From positions 572 to 64,571 of the forward strand of contig DATBHZ010000117.1 in the NCBI GenBank assembly GCA_036557185.1: a DNA stretch of 64,000 bases, given 5' to 3'. The stretch comes from Acidimicrobiia bacterium (GTDB lineage Bacteria; Actinomycetota; Acidimicrobiia; IMCC26256; JAENVU01). Every line of letters starts with the position of its first letter. Position 1 is the first letter of the stretch. The translations under genes and the position numbers were made by a program. The notes under the pieces are model-generated. The model saw nothing but the letters and a program-made list of their open reading frames with translations, was not told where the DNA came from and ran no database searches. Below, one piece after another: positions 60 to 60,039 of the stretch.

Positions 60-1928
60 ATGGCTTCCCCCGGCATCTTCGCGAATCGGTACGAAGTCGT
101 CCGTGAGATCGCGAGCGGCGGCATGGCCACCGTCTACCTCGCCCGCGATTCGAAGCTGAACCGGCTCGTCGCGCTGAAGGTCCTGTCCGACGCGCTCTCG
201 GCGGACCCGGCCTTCGTCGAGCGCTTCCGCCTCGAGGCGCAGGCCGCCGCCAATCTCAACAACCCCAACATCGTCGCCATCTACGACTGGGGCCAGGAGC
301 ACGGCACCTACTTCATCGTGATGGAGTACGTCGACGGCGAGACGCTGCGCCACAGGCTCGACACGCAGCGGACCATTCCCCCGACCCAGGCCGCCGACAT
401 CGCGGCCGAGGTCGCGGCGGGCCTCGCCTACGCCGACAAGCACGGGGTGGTCCACCGCGACGTGAAGCCCGGCAACGTGCTCATCACACCCGGCGGGCAG
501 GTGAAGGTGACCGACTTCGGCATCGCCCGCGCGCACGGAGCGAGCGACGGCCTCACCAAGACAGGCGCGGTGATGGGCACCGCGACGTACTTCTCACCGG
601 AGCAGGCGCAGGGCCTCCCCGTCGACGGGCGCTCCGACGTCTATTCGCTCGGCGTCGTGCTGTACGAGATGCTGACGGGGACGACACCGTTCAAGGGCGA
701 CGGCCCGGTCGCGGTCGCGTACAAGCACGTGCGCGAGCCCGCCGAGATGCCGACGCAGGTGAACCCGGCCATCCCGCCCCAGCTCGAGCGCATCGTCATG
801 ACGTGCCTCGCGAAGAAGCCCGAGGAGCGCTACCAGTCGGCCGACGAGGTGCGCGCCGATCTGTTGCGCTTCCGGCGCGGCCAGAGCCTCGCCGGCCCGA
901 TGACCGCGCAGGTGGCGTCCGTGGCCGACCCGACCATCGCGATGGCGCCGGCCGCGGCCGGTGGTCTCGCAGCCGACGACGAGATCCCCCAGAAGAAGCG
1001 GAACCCGTGGTTGTGGCTCGTCGCCGGCCTGCTCGCCGCGCTGCTCATCGGTGGGTTGATCCTGCTGCTCACCCAGCTCGGCGGTGGGGGCGGCGGGTCG
1101 ATCGATCCCAAGAACGTGGTGGGGATGCAGGTCGCGGACGCCACGCGCACGCTGGAGGGACAGGGGCTCAAGGTCAAGGTCACGAACAAGCCCAACGCCG
1201 ACAAGCCCGCAGGTGTGGTCGTCAGCCAGGACCCGTCGCACGGGACGAAAGTCGACAAGGGGTCCACGGTCGACCTCGTCGTGAGCGCCGGGGTTGGCAA
1301 CGTCACGATTCCTGACGTCAGCGGTGACGACTTCGCGACAGCGCAGGACACACTCGTCGGCGCGGGCTTCAAAGTGACGCAGCAGACCGAGACGAGCGCG
1401 ACCGTACCGAAGGGCGTGGTGACGCGCACCGCGCCTCCTGCGGGATCGAAGGTGGGGAAGGGATCCGCGGTCACCGTGTTCGTGTCCGGCGGCCCGGCGC
1501 AGGTGACGATCCCCGACGTCACGCGCGTCGACGCGGTGCAGGCGACCCAGATCCTCGTGCAGAAGGGCTTCCAGGTCACCAAGACGACCCAGAACAGCTC
1601 GACGGTGCCTGCCGGTCTCGTGATCTCGACCAACCCGCCCGCCGGCACGAGCGCGGCTCCGGGCAGCACGGTCCAGCTCATCGTGTCGGACGGGCCGGCC
1701 CAGCTCCAGGTGCCGAACGTCGTGGGCATGACGCAAACCGCAGCGACGAACGCGCTCACAAACCTCGGGCTGAACGTCACCGTGGTCCAGGTACCGTCCC
1801 AGCCGCAGAACAACGGGCTCGTGATCTCGCAGAGCCCGACCGGGGGAACCTCGGTGAACAGGGGCGCGACGGTGCAGATCACGGTCGGCACCGGTCAGAG
1901 CTCGACGACCACGTCCAGCACGACGTGA
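60..1928 (+). CDS. pknB: Transmembrane Ser/Thr protein kinase with four extracellular PASTA repeats (PknB-type)
   Basis: Kinase motifs are present (GGMATVY, VALK, HRDVKPGNVL, DFGIA, SPEQ). One TM segment (WLWLVAGLLAALLIGGLILLL) is followed by four repeats of the PASTA pattern (V/IPDV..G....A...L...GF/L.V). Confidence 0.92.
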   Translation: MASPGIFANRYEVVREIASGGMATVYLARDSKLNRLVALKVLSDALSADPAFVERFRLEAQAAANLNNPNIVAIYDWGQEHGTYFIVMEYVDGETLRHRLDTQRTIPPTQAADIAAEVAAGLAYADKHGVVHRDVKPGNVLITPGGQVKVTDFGIARAHGASDGLTKTGAVMGTATYFSPEQAQGLPVDGRSDVYSLGVVLYEMLTGTTPFKGDGPVAVAYKHVREPAEMPTQVNPAIPPQLERIVMTCLAKKPEERYQSADEVRADLLRFRRGQSLAGPMTAQVASVADPTIAMAPAAAGGLAADDEIPQKKRNPWLWLVAGLLAALLIGGLILLLTQLGGGGGGSIDPKNVVGMQVADATRTLEGQGLKVKVTNKPNADKPAGVVVSQDPSHGTKVDKGSTVDLVVSAGVGNVTIPDVSGDDFATAQDTLVGAGFKVTQQTETSATVPKGVVTRTAPPAGSKVGKGSAVTVFVSGGPAQVTIPDVTRVDAVQATQILVQKGFQVTKTTQNSSTVPAGLVISTNPPAGTSAAPGSTVQLIVSDGPAQLQVPNVVGMTQTAATNALTNLGLNVTVVQVPSQPQNNGLVISQSPTGGTSVNRGATVQITVGTGQSSTTTSSTT

Positions 1929-16830: not shown

Positions 16831-17793
16831 TCACCCTGCGTGTCCGCGAGCGGAAGCAGAGTTGCCCTTCGCGTTCCCGTTACCACCGCCCTTGCCATTG
16901 CCCTTGCCATTGCCCTTGCCGTTCCCGCCGCCGTTCCCGTTCCCGCCGCCGTTCCCGTTCCCGTGCCCGTTCCCGTTCCCACCGCCCGTCGCGCCGCCTG
17001 TGCTTCCTGGCGGCACAGCCGGAGTGGAGACCGCCGGCGGTGCGGTGTCCTGTGAGCCGCCGCCAACCTGAACACCGCCGGGCGCGGGCGGTGCGGACAC
17101 TTGCGGCGTTCCGCCGCTCGCGAAGGGCGCGCTGCCGGGCGGTGCAGCGTGCAGCAGCGCGCAATACTGCGCGGCGCTCACGCCTGCGCTCGTCGCCGCA
17201 CGCGTGATCAGCTTCGTTGCTTGCGTGCTCGGTGCTCGCCCACTCGCGAGCCATGCGCTGCAGGCGTTGACCACACCCGTTGCGGGTGAGCCAGATCCGT
17301 GTGCTCCGACGGCGTTCTTCCCGTTCGTCGAGGAGCTACCCGGGCCTGTTTCGTGTGACCGTCCACCGCTGCCCGACGGACCGGGGACGCCGAGACTCGA
17401 GAACGCGGTGTGCGCCACCTCCTGGAGCGGACCCGGGAGAGCGCCGGTGGCAGCGGCAGCCGCGGTCGCGAGGAGTAGCGGGACGGCCGCGACGCCCACG
17501 GCGGTCCGGAGTGACGCTCGGCGCAAGAGACTGACCCGGGACGCGATCGCGGGCTCGGAGGCTGTGGCTCGGATCGTCTCGGTGATCTGGGCGATGCGCT
17601 CGGCATCGCGTTCCGACTCGGGCGTTCCCGATCGCATCGACGACACGAGGCGATCGACGCGGTCCCCGCCTGCGGCAAGGTCGTCCGGCGCCGGCTCGCC
17701 GGAGAGGACCCGATCGGCGCGATCCGTGGGCTCGGAGTCAGACGGCCACCCGGAACCGGGCAGCAGGTCGTCGTCGTAGCCCGAGCCGCTCAT
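16831..17793 (-). CDS. Single-pass membrane protein with C-terminal Gly/Asn repeat tail (possible anti-sigma-like partner of the divergent ECF sigma)
   Basis: Acidic cytoplasmic N-terminus, one TM (VGVAAVPLLLATAAAAATGAL), an extracytoplasmic Pro/Gly/Ser-rich region, then GGGNGNGHGNGNGGGNGNGGGNGKGNGKGNGKGGGNGNAKGN. The functional call is inference from topology and position only. Confidence 0.6.
   Translation of the reverse strand: MSGSGYDDDLLPGSGWPSDSEPTDRADRVLSGEPAPDDLAAGGDRVDRLVSSMRSGTPESERDAERIAQITETIRATASEPAIASRVSLLRRASLRTAVGVAAVPLLLATAAAAATGALPGPLQEVAHTAFSSLGVPGPSGSGGRSHETGPGSSSTNGKNAVGAHGSGSPATGVVNACSAWLASGRAPSTQATKLITRAATSAGVSAAQYCALLHAAPPGSAPFASGGTPQVSAPPAPGGVQVGGGSQDTAPPAVSTPAVPPGSTGGATGGGNGNGHGNGNGGGNGNGGGNGKGNGKGNGKGGGNGNAKGNSASARGHAG
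16860..16990. repeat. In-frame short tandem repeats encoding the Gly/Asn tail
   Basis: CCCTTGCCATTG is reiterated about 3 times. The TTCCCGCCGCCGTTCCCG unit is reiterated on the plus strand. Confidence 0.85.
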
Positions 17794-17992
17794 CGCGCCG
17801 GGACTCCTGGCGCCCCGATGGCGCCGCAGTACATGGTGCCCACCGAGTTGCTCCTGCCGCTTCTGCCGCCGTGGCGGCTCTGGTAGTCAAACTTCGCGTA
17901 TCGGAGCGTGACCCTATCGAGCCGGATCCCCGCAACCGTGGATGTCACCATCCTCCGCTCCGCCCGCCTTGTAAAGCGATGCGACGGAGAAA

Positions 17993-18019
17993 ACCCGGAT
18001 GGGCGCAGTCCATCCGGGT
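17993..18019. other. Perfect 10-bp stem / 7-nt loop hairpin in the sigma-factor upstream region
   Basis: ACCCGGATGG-gcgcagt-CCATCCGGGT. Confidence 0.5.
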
Positions 18020-18111
18020 CCTCCTACCTACGACAACCGAAATGATGCGCACCGGCACTTTGCCGGTCCTTTGCCAGGGGAGCGCAGGTTCAGTTTCGGA
18101 CCCCGATTTAG

Positions 18112-18789
18112 GTGTCGTGGCCCATGTCGTCGGCCTTCTCGGTGGGGAGATCGTCCCACCAAGAGCGCGCGTTACGGGTCGGAGCGATCGAGGGCTCAGG
18201 TTCACGGGGAATCTGCCGAAAACCCCTCGTGATCCTGGGGGAGTGGGACTTCGCGGAGCTGCTGTCCGCGGCCCAGAACGGGGCCGAATGGGCGGTGTCG
18301 CTGTTGTACCGCGACCTTCATCCGCGCCTCGCGAAGTACCTCGGCGCGAGGGAGCCCGGCGCCGCAGAGGACATCGAATCCGAGGTCTGGCTCGCGATTG
18401 CACAACGCGTCGGCGACTTCGTCGGCGACGAGCAGGCCTTCCGTGCGTGGGCGTTCTCGATCGCACGCCGGCGACTCATGGACTTCCGCCGCACGGCCGT
18501 GCGACGTGCAACCACTCCTACGCCGGTCGAGTACCTCGACGGTCCCGACCGCGTCGACGTCGAAGACACTGTGCTCGACGCGCTCTCCGCAGAAGAGGCG
18601 GCTTCGTTCGTCGTTTCCACGCTCACGGACGATCAAGCCGAGGTCGTGCTCCTCAGGGTCCTGGGCGATCTCGACGTCACCCAGGTCTCCGAGCTTCTCC
18701 ACAAGAGCCCGGGTGCGATTCGGGTGCTCCAGCACCGCGCCCTGCGCCACCTCGAGCGCGCGCTCACCGAGGAACGAGTAACGCAATAG
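18112..18789 (+). CDS. ECF-type RNA polymerase sigma-70 family factor
   Basis: Region 2 (LLYRDLHPRLAKYL..EDIESEVWLAIA....F) and region 4 HTH (LTDDQAEVVLLRVLGDLDVTQVSELLHKSPGAIRVLQHRALRHL). The start is uncertain; an alternative GTG lies at 18229. Confidence 0.85.
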   Translation: MSWPMSSAFSVGRSSHQERALRVGAIEGSGSRGICRKPLVILGEWDFAELLSAAQNGAEWAVSLLYRDLHPRLAKYLGAREPGAAEDIESEVWLAIAQRVGDFVGDEQAFRAWAFSIARRRLMDFRRTAVRRATTPTPVEYLDGPDRVDVEDTVLDALSAEEAASFVVSTLTDDQAEVVLLRVLGDLDVTQVSELLHKSPGAIRVLQHRALRHLERALTEERVTQ

Positions 18790-18813
18790 CGGCCTCGAGC
18801 GATACAAGCGGCG

Positions 18814-19206
18814 ATGTCGCTCTCGCTCGCCCACACAGAAGCCGCGCTTCGGACACCAAGAGCTTCCGCTGAGGAGCTCGGCCCGGTCGGCAGGCTCATC
18901 GACGCACTCCGCGCGCCCGCATCTCGGAGCACCGGGGTCGAGCGCTCGGAGGTCTTGGCGCAGGTAATACGCGAGCGCAAGGACGAGGGGATCGCGCCCG
19001 GGGCGAGCGGCCATCGCGAGACGGTCGAGTGCAGAGAACATGCACGAGCTCGACGGGTACGCACGGACGGGCGAGCGGTGCGCGTGTTCTCGGCGCCACC
19101 GTTGTCGCGAGAGTGGGGCACCGCTCGACCCGTCCGGCGCGAGCGCCGCTGCCGAGAGCAATGGACTCCGCCTCGGCTCGAGGGTTCGCAAGGCAGCCTC
19201 TCGTGA
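18814..19206 (+). CDS. Hypothetical ORF between the sigma factor and the first pilin gene (coding status uncertain)
   Basis: The first ~70 codons have ordinary amino-acid composition, and by hand count about three quarters end in G/C. The stop overlaps the GTG of the next gene (GTGA at 19203-19206). The C-terminal half is Arg-rich and looks less convincing. There is no TM and no recognisable motif. Confidence 0.35.
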   Translation: MSLSLAHTEAALRTPRASAEELGPVGRLIDALRAPASRSTGVERSEVLAQVIRERKDEGIAPGASGHRETVECREHARARRVRTDGRAVRVFSAPPLSREWGTARPVRRERRCREQWTPPRLEGSQGSLS

Positions 19207-20462
19207 GGAGCTTCGTGCGCTCCGTTCGCCGGCGTCTCGACGCTCGGGGGAGTCGGTCGTCCCAGGCCGGGATGACGCTCATCGAGCTCATCGTCGCGAT
19301 CACGTTGATGTCGGTCGTGATCGTGGGCCTCGCCACCACCATCGGCGCGTCGGACAAGGTGATCCAGCTCACGCGTGCACGCCAGGTGGCCGAGGCTGCG
19401 GCGAACAAGCGAATCGAAGAGCTCCGCGACATCGACTACGACAACCTCGCGCTCGACTCCCAACCGACCCACAGCACCGATCCGAACAACCCCGACTTCT
19501 ACGTCTCGGCCGACGGGACTCAGTACAACTACACGGGCGCGACACCGGCGAACAACGAGGACCTGATCGTCGACACGACGCCACCCCTGGGCCAGGTCAA
19601 GCACATCGAGACGCCCGTCACGGTCGGGACCACCGTGGTCGACGTCTATCAGTACGTGACGTGGGTGGACGACCCGACCATCGCGGGGACCCAGAACCTC
19701 AAGCGAATCACCGTGGTCGTGCACTACCACACGGTCGCGGTTCCGGGCACCGACGCGACGCTGCGCGAGTCGGTGCTCTTCACCCCGGGCACGGTCACGA
19801 TCAACCCCGACGATTCCGAATCCGACCCGACGACCACCACTACGTCGACATCGACATCGACCACGACGCTCCCATCGGCGTGTGGCTCCTTCTCGATGGC
19901 AGGCAGCGGCGGGGCGCAGGTCGGCTACACGGCGACGACCACGATCACGATCACGCTCAACCTGGACGCGTGCGGCGTCGACTACGTCGACGTCTCGAAC
20001 GACGGCTCGACCTGGACGAGCAACCTTCCCTACGACAGCACGGACCCAACGCTCGCGTGGACGCTCACCGGGGGCGATGGCGAGAAGACGGTCTCGGTGC
20101 AGGCGCACAACGGCATCGCGGGGGTGCCGTTCAGCGTGGGGGCACAGAACATCATCCTCGACACGATCAAGCCGACGACGCCCACCAACCTGACCGGGAG
20201 CGCGTCGTGCCAGGGCTCGAACCGCACCGTCGTCATGTCGTGGGACACGTCCACCGACGACAACTTCGTCGGTTACCACGTGTACCGCAGCACCGACGGT
20301 GTGACCTGGCAGCTGGTGACCTCGGTGGTGGGAACCAGCGCGTCCGACACGAGCTCCAAGGGCCTCTCTTCGACTCGTTACTACGTGGCCGCATACGACA
20401 AGGCCGGAAACGAATCCAATGCGAGCAACACGATTCTTTACTCGAAGAACCAGTGCAGCTGA
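19203..20462 (+). CDS. Prepilin-type protein, PilV-like minor pilin with Ser/Thr linker, Ig-like module and C-terminal fibronectin type III domain
   Basis: Basic leader then QAG|MTLIELIVAITLMSVVIVGL (Gly -1, Glu +5). PilV-like AEAAANKRIEELR. TTTTTSTSTSTTT linker. FN3 signature SWDTSTDDNFVGYHVYRS...YYVAAYDKAGNES. The start could also be ATG 19161 or GTG 19215. Confidence 0.85.
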   Translation: MRSFVRSVRRRLDARGSRSSQAGMTLIELIVAITLMSVVIVGLATTIGASDKVIQLTRARQVAEAAANKRIEELRDIDYDNLALDSQPTHSTDPNNPDFYVSADGTQYNYTGATPANNEDLIVDTTPPLGQVKHIETPVTVGTTVVDVYQYVTWVDDPTIAGTQNLKRITVVVHYHTVAVPGTDATLRESVLFTPGTVTINPDDSESDPTTTTTSTSTSTTTLPSACGSFSMAGSGGAQVGYTATTTITITLNLDACGVDYVDVSNDGSTWTSNLPYDSTDPTLAWTLTGGDGEKTVSVQAHNGIAGVPFSVGAQNIILDTIKPTTPTNLTGSASCQGSNRTVVMSWDTSTDDNFVGYHVYRSTDGVTWQLVTSVVGTSASDTSSKGLSSTRYYVAAYDKAGNESNASNTILYSKNQCS

Positions 20463-20982
20463 GCGCGGCGTAGGGCAGGCGGGCTTCACGCTCGTCGAGC
20501 TCATGATCACCGTCGCGCTCCTCGCGGTGGTGCTCGGCGTCGTGTTCGACTCGTTGATCCAGATGCAGTCGTCCGAGTCGTTCCAGCAGGACCGGTCGAC
20601 CTCGCTCGACACGATGCGTCTCACGCTCAACCAGATGACGCGCAACCTGCGGCAAGCAGCGACGATCAACGAGGCAACCGCGACCTCGAGCCACCTCGAA
20701 TTCACGACGTACAAGCTGAACGAGGCGACTCCGACGACCGAGGACGTCACGTATGACGCGACGGGTACGACGCTCACGCGCAAGGTCGACAGCGGCTCGG
20801 CTGTGCCGGTCGTGACCAACCTGCAGAGCACGAACCTGTTCACCTACACGCCGGCGCCCAACACCACCGGCGTCCAGTGGGTCGCGATCAACCTCGCCAT
20901 CGTGCCCAAGAACGCTCCGAGCACCGTGCTCGTCCTCGACGGACAGGTCAACCTCCGGAACAGAACGGCGGCACAGCTATGA
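20419..20982 (+). CDS. Prepilin-type protein, PilW/GspJ-like minor pilin
   Basis: Leader then QAG|FTLVELMITVALLAVVLGVVF (Gly -1, Phe +1, Glu +5). ATG 20419 is the only in-frame canonical start and overlaps the previous gene by 44 nt. Confidence 0.8.
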   Translation: MRATRFFTRRTSAAERGVGQAGFTLVELMITVALLAVVLGVVFDSLIQMQSSESFQQDRSTSLDTMRLTLNQMTRNLRQAATINEATATSSHLEFTTYKLNEATPTTEDVTYDATGTTLTRKVDSGSAVPVVTNLQSTNLFTYTPAPNTTGVQWVAINLAIVPKNAPSTVLVLDGQVNLRNRTAAQL

Positions 20983-22472
20983 CCAGGCTCCTGACGCACC
21001 GCGACTCCCGGGAAGACGGATTCGCGCTGATCGCCACCATGCTGGCGATCTTCATCGCGACGCTGATCGCGACGAGCATGATGTACCTGAGCTTCCACGA
21101 CTCGACAGCCGGCGCGCGCAACCGCTCGTGGGGGCAGGCGATTCACGTGGCCGAGTCCGGCATGCACGAGGCGATCGCCTACCTCCAGGCGAACAACGGC
21201 GCGGTCCCGCCCAGCACCATCACGGGGACGACGGCCGACGGCACCTACCAGTACAAGGTCACCGCGCTGCCCAGGAACCGCTACCAGATCGACAGCATCG
21301 GCAGCGTCGGCAACGTCGTGTCGCTCAGCGCGGCGCGGCGCATCCGTGTGACGCTCGCTCCGCCGCACTCGTTCAAGTACGCGCTCTTCTCGCTGAGCGA
21401 CGTCACGACGAAGAACAACAACCTCGTATGCGGTGACATCTGGGCGAACACCGACGTCACGGTCTTCCAGAACGACCAGGTGGTGGCGGGAACCGACCCG
21501 CAGTGCCCCTCCGGCTCGATCGGGAGCGGATCGGCAACAGCCGCGGGTGGGACGATCACGCTCCAGCACAACTCGGTCGTCGAGGGCGACGCTTGGTCAG
21601 GGAACTTCGATTCGTCCGGCGACGGGATCTCGCTCGCCGGCGGCGCGCGCATCGGTGGCTTCGCCAAGGCATCGTCGGCTACCCCCGCTTGCGCCGACGA
21701 TCCCGGCCACGACGGCTACGCGATCGACAACGGAGGGACAATCGCCGGGCCCGCGACTGCCTGGGGGACGATCGGCGGCGGCGGGTCGTTCAGCACGCAG
21801 TCGCCGATGACGTGCACACCTGCAGCCGCGACCAAGACGATCCCGACGTTCAACTACAGCGCGGCGAACTACCCGGGCCCGAGCTTGCACGAGTACACCT
21901 TCCCCGCGGACTACGCGGCGTTCAACGCGTACATCGCGGCAAACCAGAACAACCTCGAGGGTACGTTCCACATCATCGGCGGCGACGCGAGCACACCGGT
22001 GAACTTGACAGGAGTCCAGATCGCGGGTGACACCACGATCATCGCGGACTCGGCACCGATCGACGCTTCGGGGGGGATCGGAGCGGCGAACAACGACGAC
22101 AAGCTGCTCGTGCTCGCATCGTTCTATGCGCCGTCCGGAGGACCCACGGACTCTGGCTGCACGACGAACGGCGGCAACCCCGGCGACTGCGCCATCGGGT
22201 TCAAGAACAATTTCCAGCCGGCCTCCGGAGACTTGACCGGCGGCAACAACACCGCCGTTCTTCTCTACGCGCCGAACGGGCCTGTAGCGTTCAAGAACAA
22301 CGCGCAGTTCCAGGGTGCGGTCTACGCGAGCAACATCCAACTGAAGAACAACATGAACGTGGTCTACGACACCCGCGTCGACCAGATCGTGGGCTTCGGG
22401 CCCGAGACGCTCGTCGTCGATCAGTGGCTGGAGTGCAGCAGCTCCGGGAGCCTCACCACCACCGACTGCTGA
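20979..22472 (+). CDS. PilX/GspK-like large pilus-tip protein with PilX-type N-terminus and beta-helix-like Gly/Asn/Asp-rich body
   Basis: ATG 20979 overlaps the upstream stop (ATGA). The N-terminus is REDG|FALIATMLAIFIATLIATSMMYL with no Glu at +5. The remainder is about 480 aa with repeated short G/N/D-rich segments and paired Cys. Confidence 0.75.
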   Translation: MTRLLTHRDSREDGFALIATMLAIFIATLIATSMMYLSFHDSTAGARNRSWGQAIHVAESGMHEAIAYLQANNGAVPPSTITGTTADGTYQYKVTALPRNRYQIDSIGSVGNVVSLSAARRIRVTLAPPHSFKYALFSLSDVTTKNNNLVCGDIWANTDVTVFQNDQVVAGTDPQCPSGSIGSGSATAAGGTITLQHNSVVEGDAWSGNFDSSGDGISLAGGARIGGFAKASSATPACADDPGHDGYAIDNGGTIAGPATAWGTIGGGGSFSTQSPMTCTPAAATKTIPTFNYSAANYPGPSLHEYTFPADYAAFNAYIAANQNNLEGTFHIIGGDASTPVNLTGVQIAGDTTIIADSAPIDASGGIGAANNDDKLLVLASFYAPSGGPTDSGCTTNGGNPGDCAIGFKNNFQPASGDLTGGNNTAVLLYAPNGPVAFKNNAQFQGAVYASNIQLKNNMNVVYDTRVDQIVGFGPETLVVDQWLECSSSGSLTTTDC

Positions 22473-22591
22473 TCAGCGTGCGGCGGTGACGAGCGCGACT
22501 CAGTCCGTCAGCGACCCGTCGTCGGGGAGATACGCGAACAGCTCCCGGTCGCCCTCCAACCCCTTGAGCTTTCGAAGCAGCACGGAACGGG

Positions 22592-22665
22592 TGGAGACGA
22601 TGGGACTCGAACCCACGACCCCCTGCTTGCAAAGCAGGTGCTCTAGCCAGCTGAGCTACGTCCCC
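22592..22665 (-). tRNA. tRNA-Ala (anticodon UGC)
   Basis: Reverse complement GGGGACGTAGCTCAGCTGGCTAGAGCACCTGCTTTGCAAGCAGGGGGTCGTGGGTTCGAGTCCCATCGTCTCCA. Has the G3:U70 identity pair and anticodon loop cTTTGCAAg. CCA is not encoded. Confidence 0.93.
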
Positions 22666-22747
22666 GCGAGATCGTGCAGACCGCCGACATGCGCTCTTCG
22701 ATCTCCGCGATCGAAGCTACCAGTGGAGCGCTCCGCGCCACGCTGCC

Positions 22748-24115
22748 TCATCGCGACCGGCGGGCCGGGCCGTTCGAGCCCGCCGGGTACTCCTCGAGCG
22801 GAACGAGGCCGCGCGACCAGGCCGACAGCACCGGCATCACGACGCGCCAGGACTCCTCGGCCTCGTCTCCACGGACCGACAGGGCAGGGTCGCCGGTGAG
22901 CACGTCGAGCAGGAGCCGGCCGTAGGGAGGTAGGTCGGGCGGAGCCATCGCCGAGGTCAGCTCGAGAGGAGCGAGCGTCCGAGCTCCGGAGCCCGTGCCC
23001 ATCAGGTCGAGCGTCAGCCCTTCCGGGTCGAGCCCGAAACGGAGCACGTTGGGCAGGACGTCCGCGTCGCTGCCGAACGGCATGTGCGGCACGGGCCGGA
23101 AGCGCACGGCGACCCCTTTGCGGTCCCGACCCAGCGCCTTGCCACTGCGGAGCCGGAAGGTCGTTCCCGACCACCGCCAGCTCTCGAGCTCCAGCTCGAC
23201 CTCGGCGAAGGTCTCCGTGCTCCGGTCGGGTTCGACGCCGGGCTCGTCGACGTAGGCAGGAACCTCGTGATCACCGATCCGCCCCGCGACGTATCGCGCG
23301 CGGCGCGTGCGGCGAACGATGTCGTCGTCGGTGAGCGGCCGCACCGAGCGCAGCACGTCGACCTTCCGGTCGCGCAAGTCGCGCTCGCCGAGGCTGATCG
23401 GCGGCTCCATCGCCACCAGGCACAGCACCTGCAACAAGTGGTTCTGCACCATGTCCTTCAGCGCGCCTGCGCTGTCGTAGTACCCGGCGCGATCCTCCAG
23501 CGTCAGCACTTCGTCCCAGACGATCTCCACCTCGGCGATGTGTGAGCTGTTCCAGAGCGGCTCGAGCACGCGGTTTGCGAGCCGGCTGCCGAGCACGTTC
23601 TCCACCGTGGTCATCGCCAGGAAGTGGTCGACGCGGAACACCGCCTCCTCGGGCACGAGATGCTCGAGCAGTCGATTCAGCGCCTCGGCGCCGGCGAGGT
23701 CTTCACCGAACGGCTTCTCGAGCACGATCCGGCTCCCCGGCGGCAGGCCGGCGCGATCGAGTGACGACACCGCTGCAGAGAAGAGCGCCGGGGGAAGCGC
23801 GAGGTACACGGCGACGGGAGCGTCGCCCTCGATCGCCGACGCCACTCCGGCGGGGTCGGTGACGTCGGCTCGTGTGAAGCGCGCCGCCTCGACGATCGCG
23901 CGTCGCGCGTCGGCCGGGAGGTCGCCGGCATGGCGCTCGAGCTGCTCCGCCGCCCACGCTCGGAACTGCTCGTCGTCCCACTCGCTGCGATCCGCGCCTG
24001 TCAGCTCGAACCGATCGCTGAGCTGCCCTGCGGCGCGCAACGCGACGAGCCCGGGCAGCAGGTATCGCGCGCAGAGGTCACCCGAGGCGCCGAACACGGT
24101 GAGTCGATCGATCAC
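22748..24115 (-). CDS. zwf: Glucose-6-phosphate 1-dehydrogenase
   Basis: Contains FGASGDLCARYLLPGL, RVDHFLAMTTVENVL and EKPFG. GTG 24115 overlaps the stop of the upstream GH15 gene (GTGA). The 74 upstream codons of the track ORF are rejected. Confidence 0.9.
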   Translation of the reverse strand: MIDRLTVFGASGDLCARYLLPGLVALRAAGQLSDRFELTGADRSEWDDEQFRAWAAEQLERHAGDLPADARRAIVEAARFTRADVTDPAGVASAIEGDAPVAVYLALPPALFSAAVSSLDRAGLPPGSRIVLEKPFGEDLAGAEALNRLLEHLVPEEAVFRVDHFLAMTTVENVLGSRLANRVLEPLWNSSHIAEVEIVWDEVLTLEDRAGYYDSAGALKDMVQNHLLQVLCLVAMEPPISLGERDLRDRKVDVLRSVRPLTDDDIVRRTRRARYVAGRIGDHEVPAYVDEPGVEPDRSTETFAEVELELESWRWSGTTFRLRSGKALGRDRKGVAVRFRPVPHMPFGSDADVLPNVLRFGLDPEGLTLDLMGTGSGARTLAPLELTSAMAPPDLPPYGRLLLDVLTGDPALSVRGDEAEESWRVVMPVLSAWSRGLVPLEEYPAGSNGPARRSR

Positions 24116-32302: not shown

Positions 32303-34765
32303 TCAGGAGTCCTCTCCCTCTTCGGCTTCGAGAACCGGAGCAACTGCAACGACGGTGTCGCCCTCGCGCAGGGATGCGACCTTGACACCGGTCGCATCCC
32401 GACCCTGGGCTGAAATGTCCTTTACCCCGGTCCGAATGATATTGCCCGCCGAGGAGAACACGAGCACTTCGTCATCGGGCTGCACGGTGAAGGCAGATAT
32501 CACGCCCACACGGCTCGCGGTGACCTTCATGCCACGGACTCCCTGGCCGCCACGGCCCTGCACGTTGAACCGATCGAGCCGGGTGCGCTTGCCGTGCCCA
32601 CTGGCGCTGACGAAGAGCATGACGGAATCGTCACGGGCCACGTCACAGGCAACGACAGCATCGTCCGCATTCTTGAGCTTCATTCCGCGAACTCCGGCCG
32701 CGGCCCGGCCCATAGGGCGCACATCGCTCTCGTTGAACCGGATCGTCATGCCGTTCCGCGACACCATGAAGATGTCCGCCTCGCCATTTGTCTGGATGAC
32801 GCGCACCAGCTCGTCGTTGTCCTTCAGGTTGATCGCGATCAAGCCGGTGCGCAGCGACGAGTCGTACTCGCTCATCTTGGTCTTCTTCACCTGGCCATTG
32901 CGCGTCGCGAAGAACAGGTACGCACCATCCTCATAGGTGCGCGTGTCGATCACGGCCTCGATGTGCTCTTCACCCGCGAGCGCGACGAGGTTCACCAGCG
33001 CCGTACCGCGGGCCGTGCGCTCCTTCATCGGGATCTCGTGCGCGCGCAACCTGTACACACGGCCGCGGTTCGAGAAGAAAAACAGGTACGAGTGCGCGGT
33101 CGTCGTGAGGAGATGCTCGACGTAGTCCTCGTCCTTCAGGCTCGACCCGCGCACGCCCTTGCCGCCGCGGCCCTGCTTGCGGAAGCTGTCCGCGGCCACC
33201 GTCTTGATGTACCCCTTCTTCGAGAGGACGACGACAACCTCCTCGTCCTCGATCAGATCGAGGTCGTCGATCTCGCCTGAGTCGAAGGTGATCTTGGTCT
33301 TCCGCTCCGTGGCGAACTTGTCGCGGATCTCGCCGATCTCGTCCTTGATCACCGTGCGCAGCTTCTTGTCGCTCTTGAGGATCGCCTCGAGCTCCGCGAT
33401 CGTGGCTCGCAGCTCCTCGAACTCGTCGCGGAGCTTCTGGTGCTCCAGCTGAGCGAGGCGACGAAGCTGCATGTCCAGGATGTGGTTCGCCTGGATCTCG
33501 CTGAACTCGTATGGCTTGGCCATGAGCGCGGTACGCGCCGCGTCGGCGCTCTCGGACCCGCGGATCAGGGCGATGATCTCGTCGATGTGGTCGAGGGCCC
33601 GGAGCAGCCCCTCCACGATGTGCGCTCGGTCGCGCGCCTTCTCGAGACGGAAATTCGTCCGTCGCGTGATGACGTCGATCTGGTGTGCGACGTACTCCTC
33701 GAGCACCTCCTTGAGGTTGAGCACCTTCGGTGCCCCGTCGACGAGCGCGAGCATGATCACGCCGAAGTTGGACTGCATCGACGTGTGCTTGAAGAGCTGA
33801 TTGAGCACGACCTGCGCGTTCGCATCTCGCTTGAGGTCGATAACGAGCCGGTACTCGCCGCGCGAGGTCTCGTTCCGGACGTCGCGAATCCCTTCGATCT
33901 TTCGGTCGCCGACCAGCTCGGCGATCTTCGTGCCGATCGCCTCCACCGAGGTCTGGTAGGGCACGTCGGTGACGACGATGCGCTGGCCGCCCTTGAACTC
34001 CTCGACCTCGGTGACGGCGCGCATCTTGATGGAGCCGCGACCGCTTCTGTACATGTCGTGGATCCCGCCGCGTCCGAGGATCAGCGCACCTGTCGGGAAG
34101 TCGGGTCCCTGCACGATCTTCATCAGATCCTCGACAGCCGCGTCCGGATGGTCGATCAGGTGGACGGTCGCGTCGATGACCTCACCGAGGTTGTGCGGTG
34201 GGATGTTCGTCGCCATGCCGACAGCGATCCCGCCACCCCCATTGACAAGGAGGTTCGGGAATCGCGAAGGGAGGACGTCCGGCTCCTGGGTCTTCGCGTC
34301 GTAGGTGTCGGTGAACTGAACCGTGTTCTCGTCGATGCCTTCGAGCAGCTGCATGGCGATCGGAGCGAGACGGCACTCCGTGTACCGCATGGCGCCAGGG
34401 CGATCGTTGGGGTCGGGTGATCCGAAATTGCCCTTGCCGTCGACGAGCGGGTGGCGCAGTGAGAAGTCCTGTGCCATCCGCGCGAGCGCGTCGTAGATCG
34501 CCTGGTCGCCGTGAGGGTGGAAGTTGCCCATCACATGACCCACGACCTGTGCCGACTTCGAGCGCGTGCGGTCCGGGCGAAGGCCACGGTCGTACATGCC
34601 GTAGATGATTCGACGGTGGACCGGCTTCAGCCCGTCCCGCGCGCTCGGTAGCGCCCGGGACACGATGACCGACATCGCATAGTCGAGGAAGGAGCGCTCG
34701 ACCTCTTCCTGGATCTCGATGGGTTCGACGTTGGGCTCGAGCGTCGGCTGGTCGCCGTTCGGCAC
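32303..34765 (-). CDS. gyrA: DNA gyrase subunit A
   Basis: Full length. DGLKPVHRRI, AMRYTE (catalytic Tyr region) and C-terminal beta-pinwheel repeats. Confidence 0.97.
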   Translation of the reverse strand: MPNGDQPTLEPNVEPIEIQEEVERSFLDYAMSVIVSRALPSARDGLKPVHRRIIYGMYDRGLRPDRTRSKSAQVVGHVMGNFHPHGDQAIYDALARMAQDFSLRHPLVDGKGNFGSPDPNDRPGAMRYTECRLAPIAMQLLEGIDENTVQFTDTYDAKTQEPDVLPSRFPNLLVNGGGGIAVGMATNIPPHNLGEVIDATVHLIDHPDAAVEDLMKIVQGPDFPTGALILGRGGIHDMYRSGRGSIKMRAVTEVEEFKGGQRIVVTDVPYQTSVEAIGTKIAELVGDRKIEGIRDVRNETSRGEYRLVIDLKRDANAQVVLNQLFKHTSMQSNFGVIMLALVDGAPKVLNLKEVLEEYVAHQIDVITRRTNFRLEKARDRAHIVEGLLRALDHIDEIIALIRGSESADAARTALMAKPYEFSEIQANHILDMQLRRLAQLEHQKLRDEFEELRATIAELEAILKSDKKLRTVIKDEIGEIRDKFATERKTKITFDSGEIDDLDLIEDEEVVVVLSKKGYIKTVAADSFRKQGRGGKGVRGSSLKDEDYVEHLLTTTAHSYLFFFSNRGRVYRLRAHEIPMKERTARGTALVNLVALAGEEHIEAVIDTRTYEDGAYLFFATRNGQVKKTKMSEYDSSLRTGLIAINLKDNDELVRVIQTNGEADIFMVSRNGMTIRFNESDVRPMGRAAAGVRGMKLKNADDAVVACDVARDDSVMLFVSASGHGKRTRLDRFNVQGRGGQGVRGMKVTASRVGVISAFTVQPDDEVLVFSSAGNIIRTGVKDISAQGRDATGVKVASLREGDTVVAVAPVLEAEEGEDS

Positions 34766-34795
34766 GCAGCACCTCCGGTGACTGTCGGTGACTTG

Positions 34796-36715
<1,920 letters not shown>

Positions 36716-36888
36716 TCATCTCGGGAGCGTGTCGGAGACCCTGTTCGGGACCTCGATCCGGGATTCGGCCGGTCCCGGAACCGGTCGCTCCGGGTACGTC
36801 ACGAGCGCTTGCCCGGCACTCGGTCCCCGGGGCGTTCCAACCGCTCCAAAACTACGCGAAACCCCAGGTCAGAGGGCCAATTCCCACG

Positions 36889-37257
36889 TCACTCAGTGTA
36901 CCAGAACGGGGGTGGCTCCGGACCGATCTCGCGGTCCGGCGCAGGCTTCGCGAAGCCGCCTTCGCGCGCCACGGACACGTGCATGTCGGTGACGCCCAAC
37001 TCGGGTCGCTCGCCGCGGAGTCGGTCGAGCACCGACTGGTGGAGGAAGCGCAGCTGACCGGCCCAAGCCGGCGCGTCGACACGCACACGGAGCACGCCGG
37101 CGACGACCGCGACCGGCTCCGAGTGCGCGGCGAGCACCTCGCCCACCAGGGTCTCCCACTCCTCGGCCAGTCCCTCCAGTGCCGCGGGCTCAGGCGCAGC
37201 GAGGTCCCGGCGCACGGCGGCGAGGGCATCGCCGACCGGCCGGGGATCGTCAGCCAT
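36889..37257 (-). CDS. DUF721/DciA-like protein (Rv0004-type, between recF and gyrB)
   Basis: About 120 aa with GVLRVRVDAPAWAGQLRFL. The synteny fits. It overlaps the recF stop by 8 nt. Confidence 0.8.
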   Translation of the reverse strand: MADDPRPVGDALAAVRRDLAAPEPAALEGLAEEWETLVGEVLAAHSEPVAVVAGVLRVRVDAPAWAGQLRFLHQSVLDRLRGERPELGVTDMHVSVAREGGFAKPAPDREIGPEPPPFWYTE

Positions 37258-38353
37258 CGCTGCTCACCACCCCGCGGGCGACCTCCAAGCGGCGTGTCAC
37301 ATCCACGCCCGGAGGGATGACATTGGCGGTTGTCAGAATGGTCTGCGTGTCGGGCAAACACTCGACCAGGGCCGCGCAACGCTCGGGATCGAGCTCGCTG
37401 AACACGTCGTCCAGCAGCAACAGCGGCTCCGCGTCGACCGCGTCGGCCACGACTCGGTGCGCGGCGAGCCGCAACGCCAAGGCGAGCGTCCTCTGCTCAC
37501 CCTGTGAGGCGTGGTGTCGAGTCTCCAGGTCGTGGAGGAGCAACATCCAGTCGTCCCGGTGCGGGCCGACGAGGGTGAGGCCGCGGTCGAGCTCACGGCA
37601 GCGCAGGCGGTCGATCGCCCCTCTGAGCTGCTCCTCGAGGCCGTGCGGATCGCACGCTTCGTCGGACCAGCCCGGCCGGTACAGGCTCGCGAACCCCGGT
37701 GCCGTGCCCGCGAGCGCTGCATACGCTCGCTCGACGGCGGGACCGAGGGCCGTGAGCAGCTCCAGGCGGTGGGCGATCAGCGCTGCTCCGCTCACCACGA
37801 GCTTGTCGTCGAGCACCTCGAGGGTGGTGCGCTCTTCCGGGCCATGTACACCGAGACGCAACCGCGCGTTTCGTTGCTTGAGCACGCGCTCGTAGTCGGA
37901 GCGCGCCGCGGCAAAGGCCGGTGTGCAGGTCTCGAGCAAGTCGTCGAGGTACGCGCGCCGCGCGGACGGTCCCCCTTTGACGAGCTCGAGATCGTCGGGA
38001 GCGAAGACCGTGACGCGCAACGCCTCACCCAGACCGCTGCGCTTCGACAGAGCTTGCTTGTTGACGAGCACGCGGTTTCGCCCCACCGCGCGGATCGCTG
38101 CTTCGACGAGCACGGTTCTCGCGTCGTGCGCGATCTCGGAGCGCACGATGGCCTCGTCGCGACCCGACCGAACCAGTGCGGCATCCTGCACACCGCGGAA
38201 GGACCGCGCGGTCGCGACCCATCCGATCGCCTCGAGCAGGCTGGTCTTGCCCTGGCCGTTCGCACCGGTCACGACCGTGCAACCGTCGGACAGCTCGAGG
38301 TCGACCTCCTCGTAGCAGCGGAAGTCCTTGAGCCAGAGCCGCCGAAGTCGCAT
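37250..38353 (-). CDS. recF: DNA replication and repair protein RecF
   Basis: Walker A GANGQGKTSLLEA. Signature SQGEQRTLALALRLA. Walker B LLLDDVFSELD. Confidence 0.95.
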   Translation of the reverse strand: MRLRRLWLKDFRCYEEVDLELSDGCTVVTGANGQGKTSLLEAIGWVATARSFRGVQDAALVRSGRDEAIVRSEIAHDARTVLVEAAIRAVGRNRVLVNKQALSKRSGLGEALRVTVFAPDDLELVKGGPSARRAYLDDLLETCTPAFAAARSDYERVLKQRNARLRLGVHGPEERTTLEVLDDKLVVSGAALIAHRLELLTALGPAVERAYAALAGTAPGFASLYRPGWSDEACDPHGLEEQLRGAIDRLRCRELDRGLTLVGPHRDDWMLLLHDLETRHHASQGEQRTLALALRLAAHRVVADAVDAEPLLLLDDVFSELDPERCAALVECLPDTQTILTTANVIPPGVDVTRRLEVARGVVSSDG

Positions 38354-38377
38354 GACCCGAGCGTCGCGCCGGCGCGC

Positions 38378-39475
38378 TCAGGAGATGCGTACGGGCATCA
38401 GCAAGTACAGGAAGCTCGGCTTGTCGGTGCCGCGCAACGTGGCCGGCTTCAACGCATCGAGCGTCTCCAACACGGCCTCCTCGCCCTCGATGACCAAGAG
38501 GCCGTCGAGCAGGAACTGCGGGTTGAACGCCACGGCGAGGTCGGTCCCCTCGAACTTGGCGTCGAGCGCCTCGGTCGCATCGGCGCGCTCCTGGGCAGTG
38601 GCGGAGAGCTCCAGCCCCTCGCCGCTCATGGACAGCCGGACGGGTGTTCCCTCCCGTCCTTCACCGACGATCTGCATCAGCCGAACCGCTTCCTCGAGCG
38701 TCGCTCGTGGCACCGTGAGCTTGTTCGGATACCCGGACGGGATGAGCTGCTCGTAGTTCGGGAACTCGCCCTCGATCAAGCGCGCAGTGATCGAGCGGTC
38801 GTCGGACGCGAACTCCACCTCGCGCTCGCCGAGCGTCACGCGCAGCTCGCCGCTCGAGAACACACGCTGCACCTCTTGCAACGCACGCGCGCCGACCAGG
38901 ACGCGCTGGCCCGAGCTCAAGATCCCGACACCCGAGAGATCACGCACGGCGAGCCGGTACGAGTCCGTCGCGACGAGACGCAGCCCGTCCTCGGTCGCCG
39001 TCAACAGGACGCCGGTCAGGATCGGCCGCGCGTCATCGCGTGACGCTGCGGGGATCACCTGCCGGAGCGCCTCGGCGAACGGCCCGGCGTCGAGCGTCAC
39101 CGTGGCGCCGTCCGGGTTGCTCACCTGAGGGAACTCGTCGGCAGGCAGCAGCCGAACGCTCGCTCGCGCCGCGCCCGCGGAGAGCTTGGCGTCGTCACCC
39201 TCGACCTCGAAGTTCACGGATCCGGGCTTGAGCCGCGTCGTCAGCCCGTCGAAGAGCTTCGCGGGAACCACCGTCTGGCCCGGCTCGTCGACCTGCGCCG
39301 GCACACGGACACGAATCGTCAGGTCGAGGTCGCTCCCCACCAGCTCGATGTGATCGTCGGCTGCGGTCACCTGAACGCCCGACAGGACGGGCAGCGCACC
39401 GCTTCGGACGGCAATGGCTCGCTGTGCGGTACCGATGGCCTCGGCGAGCGTGTCTCGCTCGCAGCGGAACTTCAC
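38378..39475 (-). CDS. dnaN: DNA polymerase III beta sliding clamp
   Basis: MKFRCERDTLAEAI start, three-domain length (365 aa), with synteny dnaA-dnaN-recF. GTG start. Confidence 0.95.
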   Translation of the reverse strand: MKFRCERDTLAEAIGTAQRAIAVRSGALPVLSGVQVTAADDHIELVGSDLDLTIRVRVPAQVDEPGQTVVPAKLFDGLTTRLKPGSVNFEVEGDDAKLSAGAARASVRLLPADEFPQVSNPDGATVTLDAGPFAEALRQVIPAASRDDARPILTGVLLTATEDGLRLVATDSYRLAVRDLSGVGILSSGQRVLVGARALQEVQRVFSSGELRVTLGEREVEFASDDRSITARLIEGEFPNYEQLIPSGYPNKLTVPRATLEEAVRLMQIVGEGREGTPVRLSMSGEGLELSATAQERADATEALDAKFEGTDLAVAFNPQFLLDGLLVIEGEEAVLETLDALKPATLRGTDKPSFLYLLMPVRIS

Positions 39476-58786: not shown

Positions 58787-58917
58787 TCGCCGGGTGAGAT
58801 CAGCCCTTCAGGGCACCTCGGGACCCGTCGATAACTCCCTCTGGTTGCCTCGCTGCCGCGTGAGGTGCGGCACGGCCGCGAGGAGGCAGGGAAGCCACCG
58901 GGGTGGAGGGGATAGCC

Positions 58918-60039
58918 GTGCTCGATCTGGACCAGCTCCTGCGTGACGCAGTGCAGCGTGCTGCGTCGGACGTCCACATCAAGGTGGGCTCGCCCCCGTT
59001 CGTCCGCGTCGACGGTGAGCTCATCCCCGCGCAGACGGAGCCCGTGACACAAGCGGACACCGAGCGCATCGCGTTCACGATCATGCCGAAGGTGCGCGCC
59101 GAGGAGTTCATCGAGCACCACGAGGCCGACTTCGCGTACTCGCTCGCGGGGGTCGGCCGCTTCCGCGTCAACGTGATGAGCCAGCGCGGGTCCGTGGGAA
59201 TCGTGCTCCGGCGCGTCCTCGCGGGGATCCCGTCGATCGAGGAGCTCGGTCTTCCTCCGGTTGTGCGCCGCCTGGCCGAGGAGCCGCGCGGCCTCGTGCT
59301 CGTGACCGGCCCGACCGGCTCGGGAAAGACGACGAGCCTCGCGGCGATGATCGACCACATCAACGAGATCGAGTCGCGCCACATCGTGACGATCGAGGAC
59401 CCGATCGAGATCCTGCACACCGACAAGAAGTCGCTCGTGAACCAGCGCGAGATCGGCACCGACACCGACGACTTCCACGTCGCGCTCAAGCGCGTGCTGC
59501 GGCAGGACCCGGACGTGATCCTGATCGGGGAGATGCGCGACCCCGAGACGGTCTGGGCGGCGCTGGCCGCCGCTGAGACCGGCCACCTCGTGTTCTCGAC
59601 GCTGCACACGATGGGTGCGACCGAGACGATCAACAGGGTGATCGACTTCTTCCCGCCGTTCCAGCAACAGCAGGTGCGGATGTCGCTGGCCGGCGCGCTC
59701 AAGGGCATCATCTCGCAGCGCCTGGTGCAGTGCTCCGACGGCCGCGGTCGCGTGCCGGCCATGGAGGTGCTCGTCGCCACCGGTCGTGTGTTCGACAAGA
59801 TCGTCGACTCGGCGCAGACGCACGAGCTCGAGGAGCTGATCGCCGACGGCGAGTACTACGGCATGCAGACCTTCGACCAGAGCCTGCTCGGGCTGTACGC
59901 GACCGGTGTGATCACACGCCGCGACGCGCTCACCGCGTCGACCAAGACCCACGACCTGCGGCTCAAGCTCGACCAGTACGACCTGTCGCGCGCGCAGGAG
60001 GACTTCGAGGCCCAGCCCGCGGCGGCGACCCCCGCATAG
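58918..60039 (+). CDS. pilT: Type IV pilus retraction ATPase PilT (twitching motility protein)
   Basis: ASDVHIKVGSPPFVRVDG, Walker A GPTGSGKTT, Walker B ILIGEMRD and His box GHLVFSTLHT. The start is placed at GTG 58918 (GGAGGGG 7 nt upstream). Confidence 0.9.
   Translation: MLDLDQLLRDAVQRAASDVHIKVGSPPFVRVDGELIPAQTEPVTQADTERIAFTIMPKVRAEEFIEHHEADFAYSLAGVGRFRVNVMSQRGSVGIVLRRVLAGIPSIEELGLPPVVRRLAEEPRGLVLVTGPTGSGKTTSLAAMIDHINEIESRHIVTIEDPIEILHTDKKSLVNQREIGTDTDDFHVALKRVLRQDPDVILIGEMRDPETVWAALAAAETGHLVFSTLHTMGATETINRVIDFFPPFQQQQVRMSLAGALKGIISQRLVQCSDGRGRVPAMEVLVATGRVFDKIVDSAQTHELEELIADGEYYGMQTFDQSLLGLYATGVITRRDALTASTKTHDLRLKLDQYDLSRAQEDFEAQPAAATPA

Follow-up and report, generated by a model that had tools for sequence, protein, structure and literature searches.

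A putative modular type IV minor pilin of Acidimicrobiia carrying Ig-like and fibronectin type III modules on a Thr-rich linker

Background

What does a pilin gain by continuing, beyond its globular head, into a flexible linker and two further β-sandwich modules, and where would such modules be displayed? The question is raised by a gene at 19161..20462 (+) in a 64,000-nucleotide stretch of DNA from an Acidimicrobiia bacterium (contig DATBHZ010000117.1, positions 572 to 64,571; the whole stretch is called the window hereafter). An initial annotation, made from the sequence alone, read the 3' part of this gene as the continuation of a minor pilin with a PilV-like body into a Ser/Thr linker, an immunoglobulin-like (Ig-like) module and a C-terminal fibronectin type III (FN3) domain, and proposed that a head decorated in this way might be a built-in adhesin or substrate-binding tip, in place of a missing PilY1-type adhesin.

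Modular pilins were defined by Raynaud et al. (2021) as proteins with an N-terminal pilin module and at least one extra domain that is not specific to type IV pilus biology, and more than 1,200 proteins in 264 architectures were described (PMC8179133). FN3 (IPR003961), described there as having 'no clear function', is one of the 15 modules most often grafted, and the count is considered an underestimate by its authors since many modules escape the available signatures (PMC8179133). Most pilins do end with the head, as the initial annotation presumed, but pilins with grafted modules are documented (PMC8179133) and the unusualness of the present one was overstated. Type IV pili of Actinomycetota, above all those of uncultured soil and freshwater Acidimicrobiia, have hardly been studied, and a literature search found no study of this pilin family or of FN3-bearing pilins in Actinobacteria beyond the general papers on modular pilins.

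We propose, with a probability of roughly 0.6, that the product of this gene is a modular type IV minor pilin, and that its linker-borne tandem of Ig-like and FN3 modules is displayed at the pilus tip as a binding or adhesion element. This reading is carried by the prepilin motif, the domain architecture and its conservation in a family of relatives, a cassette of three genes of which the pilin gene is the first, and the pilus-operon context of that cassette in relatives.

Results

One continuous gene encodes the pilin and its C-terminal modules

The open reading frame (ORF) that holds the pilin is open from 19029 to 20462 (+) and would give a protein of 477 amino acids (aa) if read from the frame opening. 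The realistic start is the ATG at 19161, giving 433 aa plus stop, because the signal of high G+C at third codon positions (GC3) begins at about 19180 and full-length homologues agree with this start. GC3 stays at 0.8-1.0 in a single frame, without a break, from about 19180 to about 20400. Region 19809-20462 (+) translates to aa 217-433 of this ORF, and translation reproduced the strings quoted in the initial annotation, namely DDSESDPTTTTTSTSTSTTTLPSACGSF, VSNDGSTW, WTLTGGDGEKTVSVQ, ILDTIKPTTPTNLTG, VVMSWDTSTDDNFVGYHVYRS, YYVAAYDKAGNES and the terminal KNQCS before the stop codon.

A long ORF of this kind might also arise by a frameshift, by a chimeric assembly or by the fusion of two genes through sequencing error, and runs of Thr codons could in principle make an assembly slip; apart from that, we found nothing in favour of an artefact. 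The locus was detected in six soil metagenome runs, and unitigs of three independent soil runs, covering 19272-20600 (X1), 19551-20510 (X2) and 19724-20600 (X3), cross the junctions between head, linker and modules without gaps, joints or indels. Together with the unbroken high-GC3 frame and the identical architecture of more than 100 homologues, one of them in the complete genome CP011489, these unitigs rule out an artefact, whose residual likelihood we regard as negligible, and the C-terminal part is not a separate gene.

A prepilin N-terminus, a long helix and a β-sheet head

The protein begins with a basic leader peptide of 37 aa that ends in SSQAG (19161..19271, +), followed by MTLIELIVAITLMSVVIVGLA, a hydrophobic stretch with Glu at mature position 5, the arrangement of a class III signal peptide. 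The N_methyl model PF07963 matched aa 32-57 of the 433-aa protein with 28.2 bits (Pfam cut-off 21.2), TIGR02532 matched the 477-aa version of the ORF with 20.7 (cut-off 16.3), and the Gly at position -1 is kept in those homologues whose sequence includes the leader. Prepilin peptidase is predicted from this motif to cut after Gly37, so that the mature pilin would start with MTLIE.

The α1 helix of the mature pilin (19272..19424, +), which begins with MTLIELIVAITLMSVVIVGLA and contains Glu5, is about 50 residues long, and would serve as membrane anchor and filament-core helix. AlphaFold places a helix at residues 40-88, with a predicted local distance difference test score (pLDDT) of 82-93, and the C-terminal half of this helix is the most conserved region of the family (mean pairwise identity 0.75). 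The helix is followed by a Cys-free, β-sheet globular head, aa 89-210 (19425..19790, +), with strands at 121-207 (pLDDT 86-96). The predicted structure consequently has the 'lollipop' fold of a pilin, with a helix at 40-88 and then a sheet to 207, at pLDDT 82-96.

Less can be said of the kind of pilin from the head itself. The PilV model TIGR02523 scored 19 bits (cut-off 52.2) and the GspI model TIGR01707 21.2 bits (cut-off 44.35), both over approximately the first 55 mature residues, and within the pilin part the family profile gave no match to a Protein Data Bank (PDB) sequence outside the N-terminal helix. The 'PilV-like body' of the initial annotation thus finds agreement in the order of genes, described below, but not in the sequence, where the PilV model matches the N-terminal helix only. 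The identification of the protein as a type IV, and probably minor, pilin was borne out.

A flexible Thr/Ser-rich linker joins the head to the modules

Behind the head stands a Thr/Ser-rich linker, aa 211-237, which ends in NPDDSESDPTTTTTSTSTSTTTLPS (19791..19871, +) and was delimited by low pLDDT and by its composition in the family. Residues 211-232 had a pLDDT below 50 in the AlphaFold2 model. The linker is of about 25 residues here and of 26-37 aa in the family, with a Ser plus Thr fraction of about 0.66 and a single 100-aa outlier that contains a PKD insert. A flexible Ser/Thr linker after the head, as first annotated, was thereby confirmed, being disordered in the model and of preserved composition in the family. 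O-mannosylation is common on the Thr-rich linkers of proteins secreted by actinobacteria, and for this reason the tether of this pilin is probably O-glycosylated as well.

Module 1 is a divergent Ig-like repeat

The first module, aa 238-337 (19872..20171, +), was recognised by profile search and AlphaFold as an Ig-like β-sandwich of Big_7/Big_13 type, with a conserved Cys pair, C241/C271. Annotation by hidden Markov models (HMMs) had been suggested as a check of both modules and gave neither an Ig-like nor an fn3 match above threshold, whether with the whole protein, with each module or, for fn3, with 52 family members: Big_7 (PF17957) reached 18.1 bits on module 1 against a curated cut-off of 24.1 (E=0.004), and an RGI_lyase β-sheet domain also matched below threshold (E=0.004). 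Since fn3 gave no match and Big_7 stayed below threshold, HMM annotation alone would have refuted both modules wrongly.

When modelled alone, module 1 gave a pLDDT of 82 and a predicted template modelling score (pTM) of 0.72. Foldseek with this model returned no match at E≤0.001; the best was the PKD domain 4xed, with a template modelling (TM) score of 0.63 and a root mean square deviation (rmsd) of 3.5, and the rest were generic Ig-like sandwiches. A profile of the module, searched against 1.84 billion representative proteins, found 4,355 clusters, and its top matches were giant proteins that each matched over many stretches, as many as 41 in one of 4,464 aa. A Pfam scan of eight top matches showed Big_7 and/or Big_13 above threshold in seven, six of them with DUF7743 in addition, while the eighth, P0203, had DUF7743 only. 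Because the profile finds Big_7/Big_13 repeat proteins, we assign module 1 to the bacterial Ig-like repeats of Big_7/Big_13 (PF17957/PF19077) type, found in large surface proteins, as a divergent member; the Ig-like module of the initial annotation stands on these repeat arrays and on the structural match of the module alone.

The string VSNDGSTW of module 1 (family consensus FSNDGGTTW) forms an Asp-box-like SxDxGxTW hairpin. Against PDB sequences, the module 1 profile gave only Asp-box-like matches to the BNR motifs of sialidases, at E about 0.03, and a kinship with sialidases was rejected since what matched was the hairpin motif. This hairpin may also underlie weak matches of several family members to reelin subrepeats and to the F5/8 type C domain. 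Profile-profile comparison showed no similarity between modules 1 and 2, so that the tandem is not a recent duplication.

Module 2 is a predicted FN3 domain of bacterial type

The second module, aa 338-433 (20172..20459, +), was called a 'clear FN3 signature' by the initial annotation. It is an FN3 domain by profile matches to the PDB and by structure prediction, but one that the Pfam fn3 model (PF00041) does not see, with no match to the protein of the window at E≤10 and none among the 52 family members at E≤0.1. The family profile matched 1k85, the FnIII of chitinase A1 from Bacillus circulans (E=4e-9 to 7e-9); 6bt9, 5z06, 8pn5, neogenin and FN3con, a consensus design, were matched too, and FN3 domains from further carbohydrate-active enzymes are among these matches. 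Motifs common to module 2 and solved FN3 domains include aPtaPtnL, lsWtaStDn, vtGY.VY and kA.DaAGN.S.

AlphaFold predicts seven strands between residues 345 and 428, at pLDDT 90-96, that is, the seven-stranded sandwich of FN3 domains. Foldseek against the PDB returned tandem Ig/FN3 arrays, namely the BIg domains of SiiE, FnIII tandems of titin, DCC FN4-5 (4plo_B, rmsd 4.5, TMt 0.58) and contactin FN1-3. On the strength of these profile matches, the AlphaFold model and the Foldseek matches, module 2 is predicted to be an FN3 domain of the bacterial type known from carbohydrate-active enzymes, and the C-terminal FN3 of the initial annotation is retained. It has an invariant Cys pair, C350/C432, and a disulfide suggested by this invariance would pin the tail KNQCS to the first strand.

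The full-length AlphaFold2 model, built on the family alignment, unites these parts. Its mean pLDDT is 84, low confidence is limited to the leader and to linker residues 211-232, and the two β-sandwiches, at about 238-337 and 340-433, have a pLDDT of about 90-96; the pTM of 0.46 is the value expected for tethered domains. Structure prediction, the other check that had been suggested, therefore returned head, disordered linker, Ig-like sandwich and C-terminal FN3 as separate and confident domains.

The pilin gene is the first of a three-gene cassette

The modular pilin gene opens a tight cassette of three overlapping genes. Gene 2 (20419..20982, +), whose ATG lies 44 nt within the end of gene 1, encodes a small minor pilin with the motif G|FTLVEL and Glu5 (N_methyl, 28.9 bits). 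It resembles GspJ/PilW/ComGF weakly, the ComGF, GspJ and PilV models all scoring below their cut-offs. Gene 3 (20979..22472, +), whose start overlaps the stop of gene 2 (ATGA), encodes a large pilin-like protein of about 497 aa. Its N-terminal hydrophobic segment has no Glu5 (G|FALIA), as in GspK/PilX, and its C-terminal region matches DUF7305 (25.9 bits, threshold 27) and GspK (E=0.05) below threshold; against PDB sequences the protein gave no match at E≤10.

All three genes stand in synteny at no fewer than 40 of the 49 related genome loci examined, with gene 2 present in nearly all of them and gene 3 the best conserved, at about 60% identity.

The architecture is conserved, with shuffled modules in some relatives

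A protein search found 192 relatives, more than 100 of them full length (390-425 aa) and 45-99% identical to the pilin; those that a source names are called prepilin or 'PulG pseudopilin' (type II secretory pathway) and come from Acidimicrobiia metagenome-assembled genomes. In an alignment of 52 sequences with 46-87% identity, head, linker, module 1, module 2 and the C-terminal KNQCS are all kept, C241, C350 and C432 are invariant, and C271 is found in at least 90% of members. Most of the 49 genome loci keep the architecture too; almost all of these loci belong to Acidimicrobiia or other Actinomycetota, and the pilin family is specific to these groups. Distant relatives from other Actinomycetota, of about 480 aa and 30-35% identity, have the same head, module 1 and FN3, with a PKD domain in the place of the Thr-rich linker (loci L040-L047; the copy of L041 has in-frame stops and is a pseudogene or a sequencing error). 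In P0084, which was aligned and examined, and in similar 464-aa proteins, an additional PKD domain separates the head from the Thr-rich linker; PKD variants were also noted in P0088, P0089, P0095, P0100 and L025 (6589-8019). Insertion of the PKD domain in some members and replacement by it in others show module shuffling within the family.

The pattern of conservation bears on a different role for the modules. Mean pairwise identity is 0.61 in the FN3 module, 0.60 in the pilin head and 0.52 in module 1, so that the FN3 module and, at about 60%, gene 3 are the best conserved parts, which suggests a conserved protein-protein interface. The two modules might then be structural, as a spacer, a stalk or a docking scaffold to the gene 3 protein, to another partner or to the cell wall, with ligand binding left to another component, such as the DUF7305-like protein. 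In sequence, the FN3 module is closest to FN3 domains of the linker type in glycoside hydrolases, chitinases among them, and module 1 to repeats of giant multi-repeat proteins where such domains build stalks; both kinships would fit this role, and the C-terminal β domain of CofB provides a precedent as adapter for a secreted partner (PMC8179133). However, a flexible Thr-rich tether of about 25 residues would be an odd way to hold a rigid structural element, and relatives swap or insert modules, with PKD or none and with a Thr linker or none, as is typical of displayed effector modules. We consider a purely structural role the less likely one, though a serious rival, and prefer a displayed binding element.

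Relatives place the cassette in a type IV pilus operon

In the distant relatives the cassette is part of a complete pilus operon, which at locus L042 has the order PilB (T2SSE plus MshEN), PilT, PilC (T2SSF), a PilA-like major pilin, the modular pilin, pilin 2, the DUF7305 protein and PilD (peptidase A24). This pilus-operon context in distant relatives is the strongest evidence that the family consists of type IV minor pilins, and the place of the modular pilin in the gene order matches that of GspI/PilV in the conserved tip-complex set.

In the window, a PilT-like type IV pilus ATPase gene (58864..60039, +; T2SSE, E=3.8e-51) lies 38 kb from the cassette, and its product is 49% identical to that of the PilT-position gene of the L042 operon. 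Of the window genes that were scanned, it alone was recognised as pilus machinery, and its scanned neighbours are not pilus genes: a methyltransferase and an inositol-1-phosphate synthase are encoded downstream, and a DUF6049 protein upstream.

These observations also bear on whether the cassette might belong to a non-adhesive filament, either a Com-like competence pilus or a secretion pseudopilus, in which the extra domains of a pseudopilin would handle DNA or cargo. Source databases do name homologues 'type II secretory pathway pseudopilin PulG', gene 2 has weak ComGF/GspJ matches and gene 1 a weak GspI match, and in the window neither the major pilin nor the assembly machinery adjoins the cassette. 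All such matches, however, are below curated cut-offs and lie mainly over the common N-terminal helix, whereas the operon of the relatives, having PilB with MshEN, a PilT-type retraction ATPase, PilC, a PilA-like major pilin and PilD, has a type IVa layout, and a PilT-like gene is present in the window too. A pseudopilus or competence filament is consequently improbable, and we retain the assignment of the cassette to a type IV pilus.

Neighbouring genes and genomic setting

Directly 5' of the cassette stands a gene for an extracytoplasmic function (ECF) type sigma factor (18112..18789, +; Sigma70_r2 and r4_2, TIGR02937 above cut-off). The same arrangement of ECF sigma gene and cassette occurs in metagenomic locus L003, and putative regulation of the cassette by this factor may be considered. 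As a conserved partner of the cassette the sigma factor was rejected, no relative of it being found in the 49 genome loci (tblastn, E≤1e-8). The protein encoded by a divergent gene at 16831-17793 (-) has a single hydrophobic segment and a repeat tail rich in Gly, Asn and Lys (GNGNGHGNGNGGGNG), and by eye it is like a 255-aa protein encoded after the ECF sigma gene of L003; neither protein had a Pfam match, and the product of 16831-17793 may be a candidate anti-sigma factor. Promoter and terminator scans of 17700-22800 gave nothing above shuffled expectation.

In locus L020 (CP011489, IMCC26256; 4288-9837), two GT4 genes lie directly 5' of the cassette, and before these come a GT2 gene and the Wzm/Wzt genes of an ABC exporter. 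L004, L006, L010, L014 and L021 have the same motif match just 5' of the cassette and were taken to carry the same GT4 gene, the Pfam scan having covered L020 only. These glycosyltransferase and exporter genes are circumstantial for glycosylation of the linker, and an unrelated cell-wall glycan cluster could equally well explain them. A 95-aa prepilin that a regular-expression search had suggested just upstream in six related loci was rejected, as Pfam shows it to be the C-terminus of a GT4 glycosyltransferase.

A second large prepilin, of about 419 aa and unrelated to the modular pilin, was seen at a distance of about 2-4 kb, lying upstream of the cassette in five loci (L016 6236, L018 6338, L019 6289, L025 2914, L038 6249) and downstream in L034 (13231); it was not seen in the window. 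It has a CarboxypepD_reg-like domain below threshold (E=4e-5) and represents another modular pilin family in the same loci. In L001 (13563-15760) and L002 (13365-15520), three further small genes, absent from the window, follow 3' of the cassette and encode a 166-aa protein, a protein of 106 or 184 aa in which basic residues come after a hydrophobic segment near the C-terminus, and one of about 343 aa that matches fn3 weakly; they may form a separate set of surface proteins.

The next element after the cassette in the window is a tRNA-Ala gene (22590-22665, -). The window, with a G+C content of about 69%, contains the replication-origin region of an actinobacterial chromosome (32303-47243), in which dnaA (39683-41869, -) lies about 20 kb from the pilin cassette, together with gyrA, gyrB, a gene with a DciA domain (36889-37263), recF and dnaN on the minus strand, and yidC, jag, rsmG, parA and parB on the plus strand. 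Two Ser/Thr protein kinases are encoded at 50754-52265 (-) and 3-1928 (+), one with a C-terminal F5/8 type C (discoidin-like) domain and the other PknB-like with four PASTA repeats.

Discussion

How might such a pilin work? From what is established for type IV filaments we infer cleavage, helix packing and tip location, to which glycosylation and a binding activity towards some ligand are added. Prepilin peptidase would cut after Gly37, and the hydrophobic α1 helix with Glu5 would anchor the pilin in the membrane and later pack into the pilus core. The modular pilin would join the GspJ/PilW-like pilin of gene 2 and the GspK/PilX-like protein of gene 3, which has no Glu5, and the three cassette products would form a complex of minor pilins that primes assembly and comes to lie at the tip of the pilus. 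The tandem of Ig-like and FN3 modules would hang from the head by the flexible, Thr-rich tether of about 25 residues, probably O-glycosylated and extended, and would thereby be presented at the distal end of the fibre for binding or adhesion. This last role is plausible and our best guess, by likeness to characterised modular pilins.

Several points weigh against display of the tandem as an adhesive tip. The pilin has no recognisable lectin, von Willebrand factor A (vWA) or other binding domain, and Ig-like and FN3 domains are often passive spacers. Its FN3 module is about as conserved as the head, more in keeping with a conserved partner than with an adhesin that diversifies. The gene 3 product, with about 440 extracellular residues, could be the true adhesin and is an equally good candidate. 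A GspI/PilV-like identity of the head is at most putative, the models matching the helix alone and below their cut-offs. Finally, a major pilin and genes of PilB, PilC and PilD type were not recognised among the window genes scanned, some ORFs lying outside the scan.

A bolder form of the proposal, which we put forward only tentatively and hold to be doubtful, is that in Acidimicrobiia and related Actinomycetota the pilin at the GspI/PilV position is itself the pilus adhesin, that its glycosylated Thr tether and tandem modules bind an environmental ligand (for example a polysaccharide, a soil particle or a cell surface) and replace PilY1 throughout the class, and that in the present organism it is perhaps switched on by the adjacent ECF sigma factor.

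Whichever of these roles applies, a conserved three-gene minor-pilin cassette has been defined for Acidimicrobiia and tied to a complete pilus operon in relatives, and it is a concrete candidate for surface or substrate attachment by abundant soil bacteria. Since Pfam fn3 does not recognise the family, and Big_7 fails on it as well, the family has probably escaped the modular-pilin catalogue and would probably be missed by domain-based catalogues in general.

Among known tip proteins, the PilY1/PilC adhesins of diderm type IVa pili are linked to the present pilin solely by a possible functional analogy, an effector displayed by a minor-pilin tip complex: PilY1 is not a pilin and has a C-terminal β-propeller (IPR008707), nothing like which was seen here. 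The best solved sequence relatives of module 2, the FnIII of chitinase A1 and FN3 domains of other carbohydrate-active enzymes, differ in setting, since FN3 domains of the chitinase type link the catalytic and binding domains of secreted enzymes, whereas this one forms the C-terminal end of a pilin and has the additional invariant pair C350/C432.

Closer in plan are the modular minor pilins of other pili. PilB (vWA) and PilC (lectin) of Streptococcus sanguinis are modelled in a tip-located complex, bind ligands and mediate adhesion (PMC8179133; PMC9934059). They come from the type IV pili of a monoderm, of which five subunits have been described, none of them a PilY1, and there, as here, a small pilin carries the extra module. 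Their modules, a vWA with MIDAS and a ConA-like lectin, are unrelated to the Ig-like and FN3 modules described here, their linkers are short loops in contrast to a Thr-rich tether, and the binding role of the present tandem is putative. CofB of enterotoxigenic Escherichia coli (ETEC) has a pilin domain, a flexible linker and two β-rich domains, is predicted at the tip and acts as adapter for a partner (PMC8179133). With this order of pilin, flexible linker and two β-rich domains our pilin agrees, although CofB and TcpB are type IVb proteins without sequence relationship to it, and although their C-terminal domains are a β-repeat and a lectin-like sandwich where ours are Big_7-like and FN3. TcpB of Vibrio cholerae is a type IVb minor pilin with the plan of CofB. 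Both form homotrimers, whereas the partner genes of the cassette suggest a heteromeric complex of the GspI/J/K kind.

With the sets GspH-I-J-K and FimU-PilV-PilW-PilX the cassette shares its order: the modular pilin is the first of a trio, a J/W-like pilin follows, and then a K/X-like protein without Glu5, and in relatives the modular pilin gene comes directly after that of the major pilin, at the GspI/PilV position. The pilin is, however, about three times larger than GspI/PilV, and a fourth, GspH/FimU-like pilin was not found in the cassette. As to the modular pilins of Raynaud et al., those with the architecture IPR012902 plus IPR003961 are alike in having a pilin module followed by grafted domains that are not pilus-specific, while the present pilin has two modules, a Big_7/Big_13-like Ig module and FN3, after a long Thr-rich linker. 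With two extra, confidently predicted β-sandwiches behind a disordered linker, it belongs to that known class as an uncharacterised family and not as a new principle; it leaves the current view of pilus biology unchanged and fits the established idea of modules grafted on pilins.

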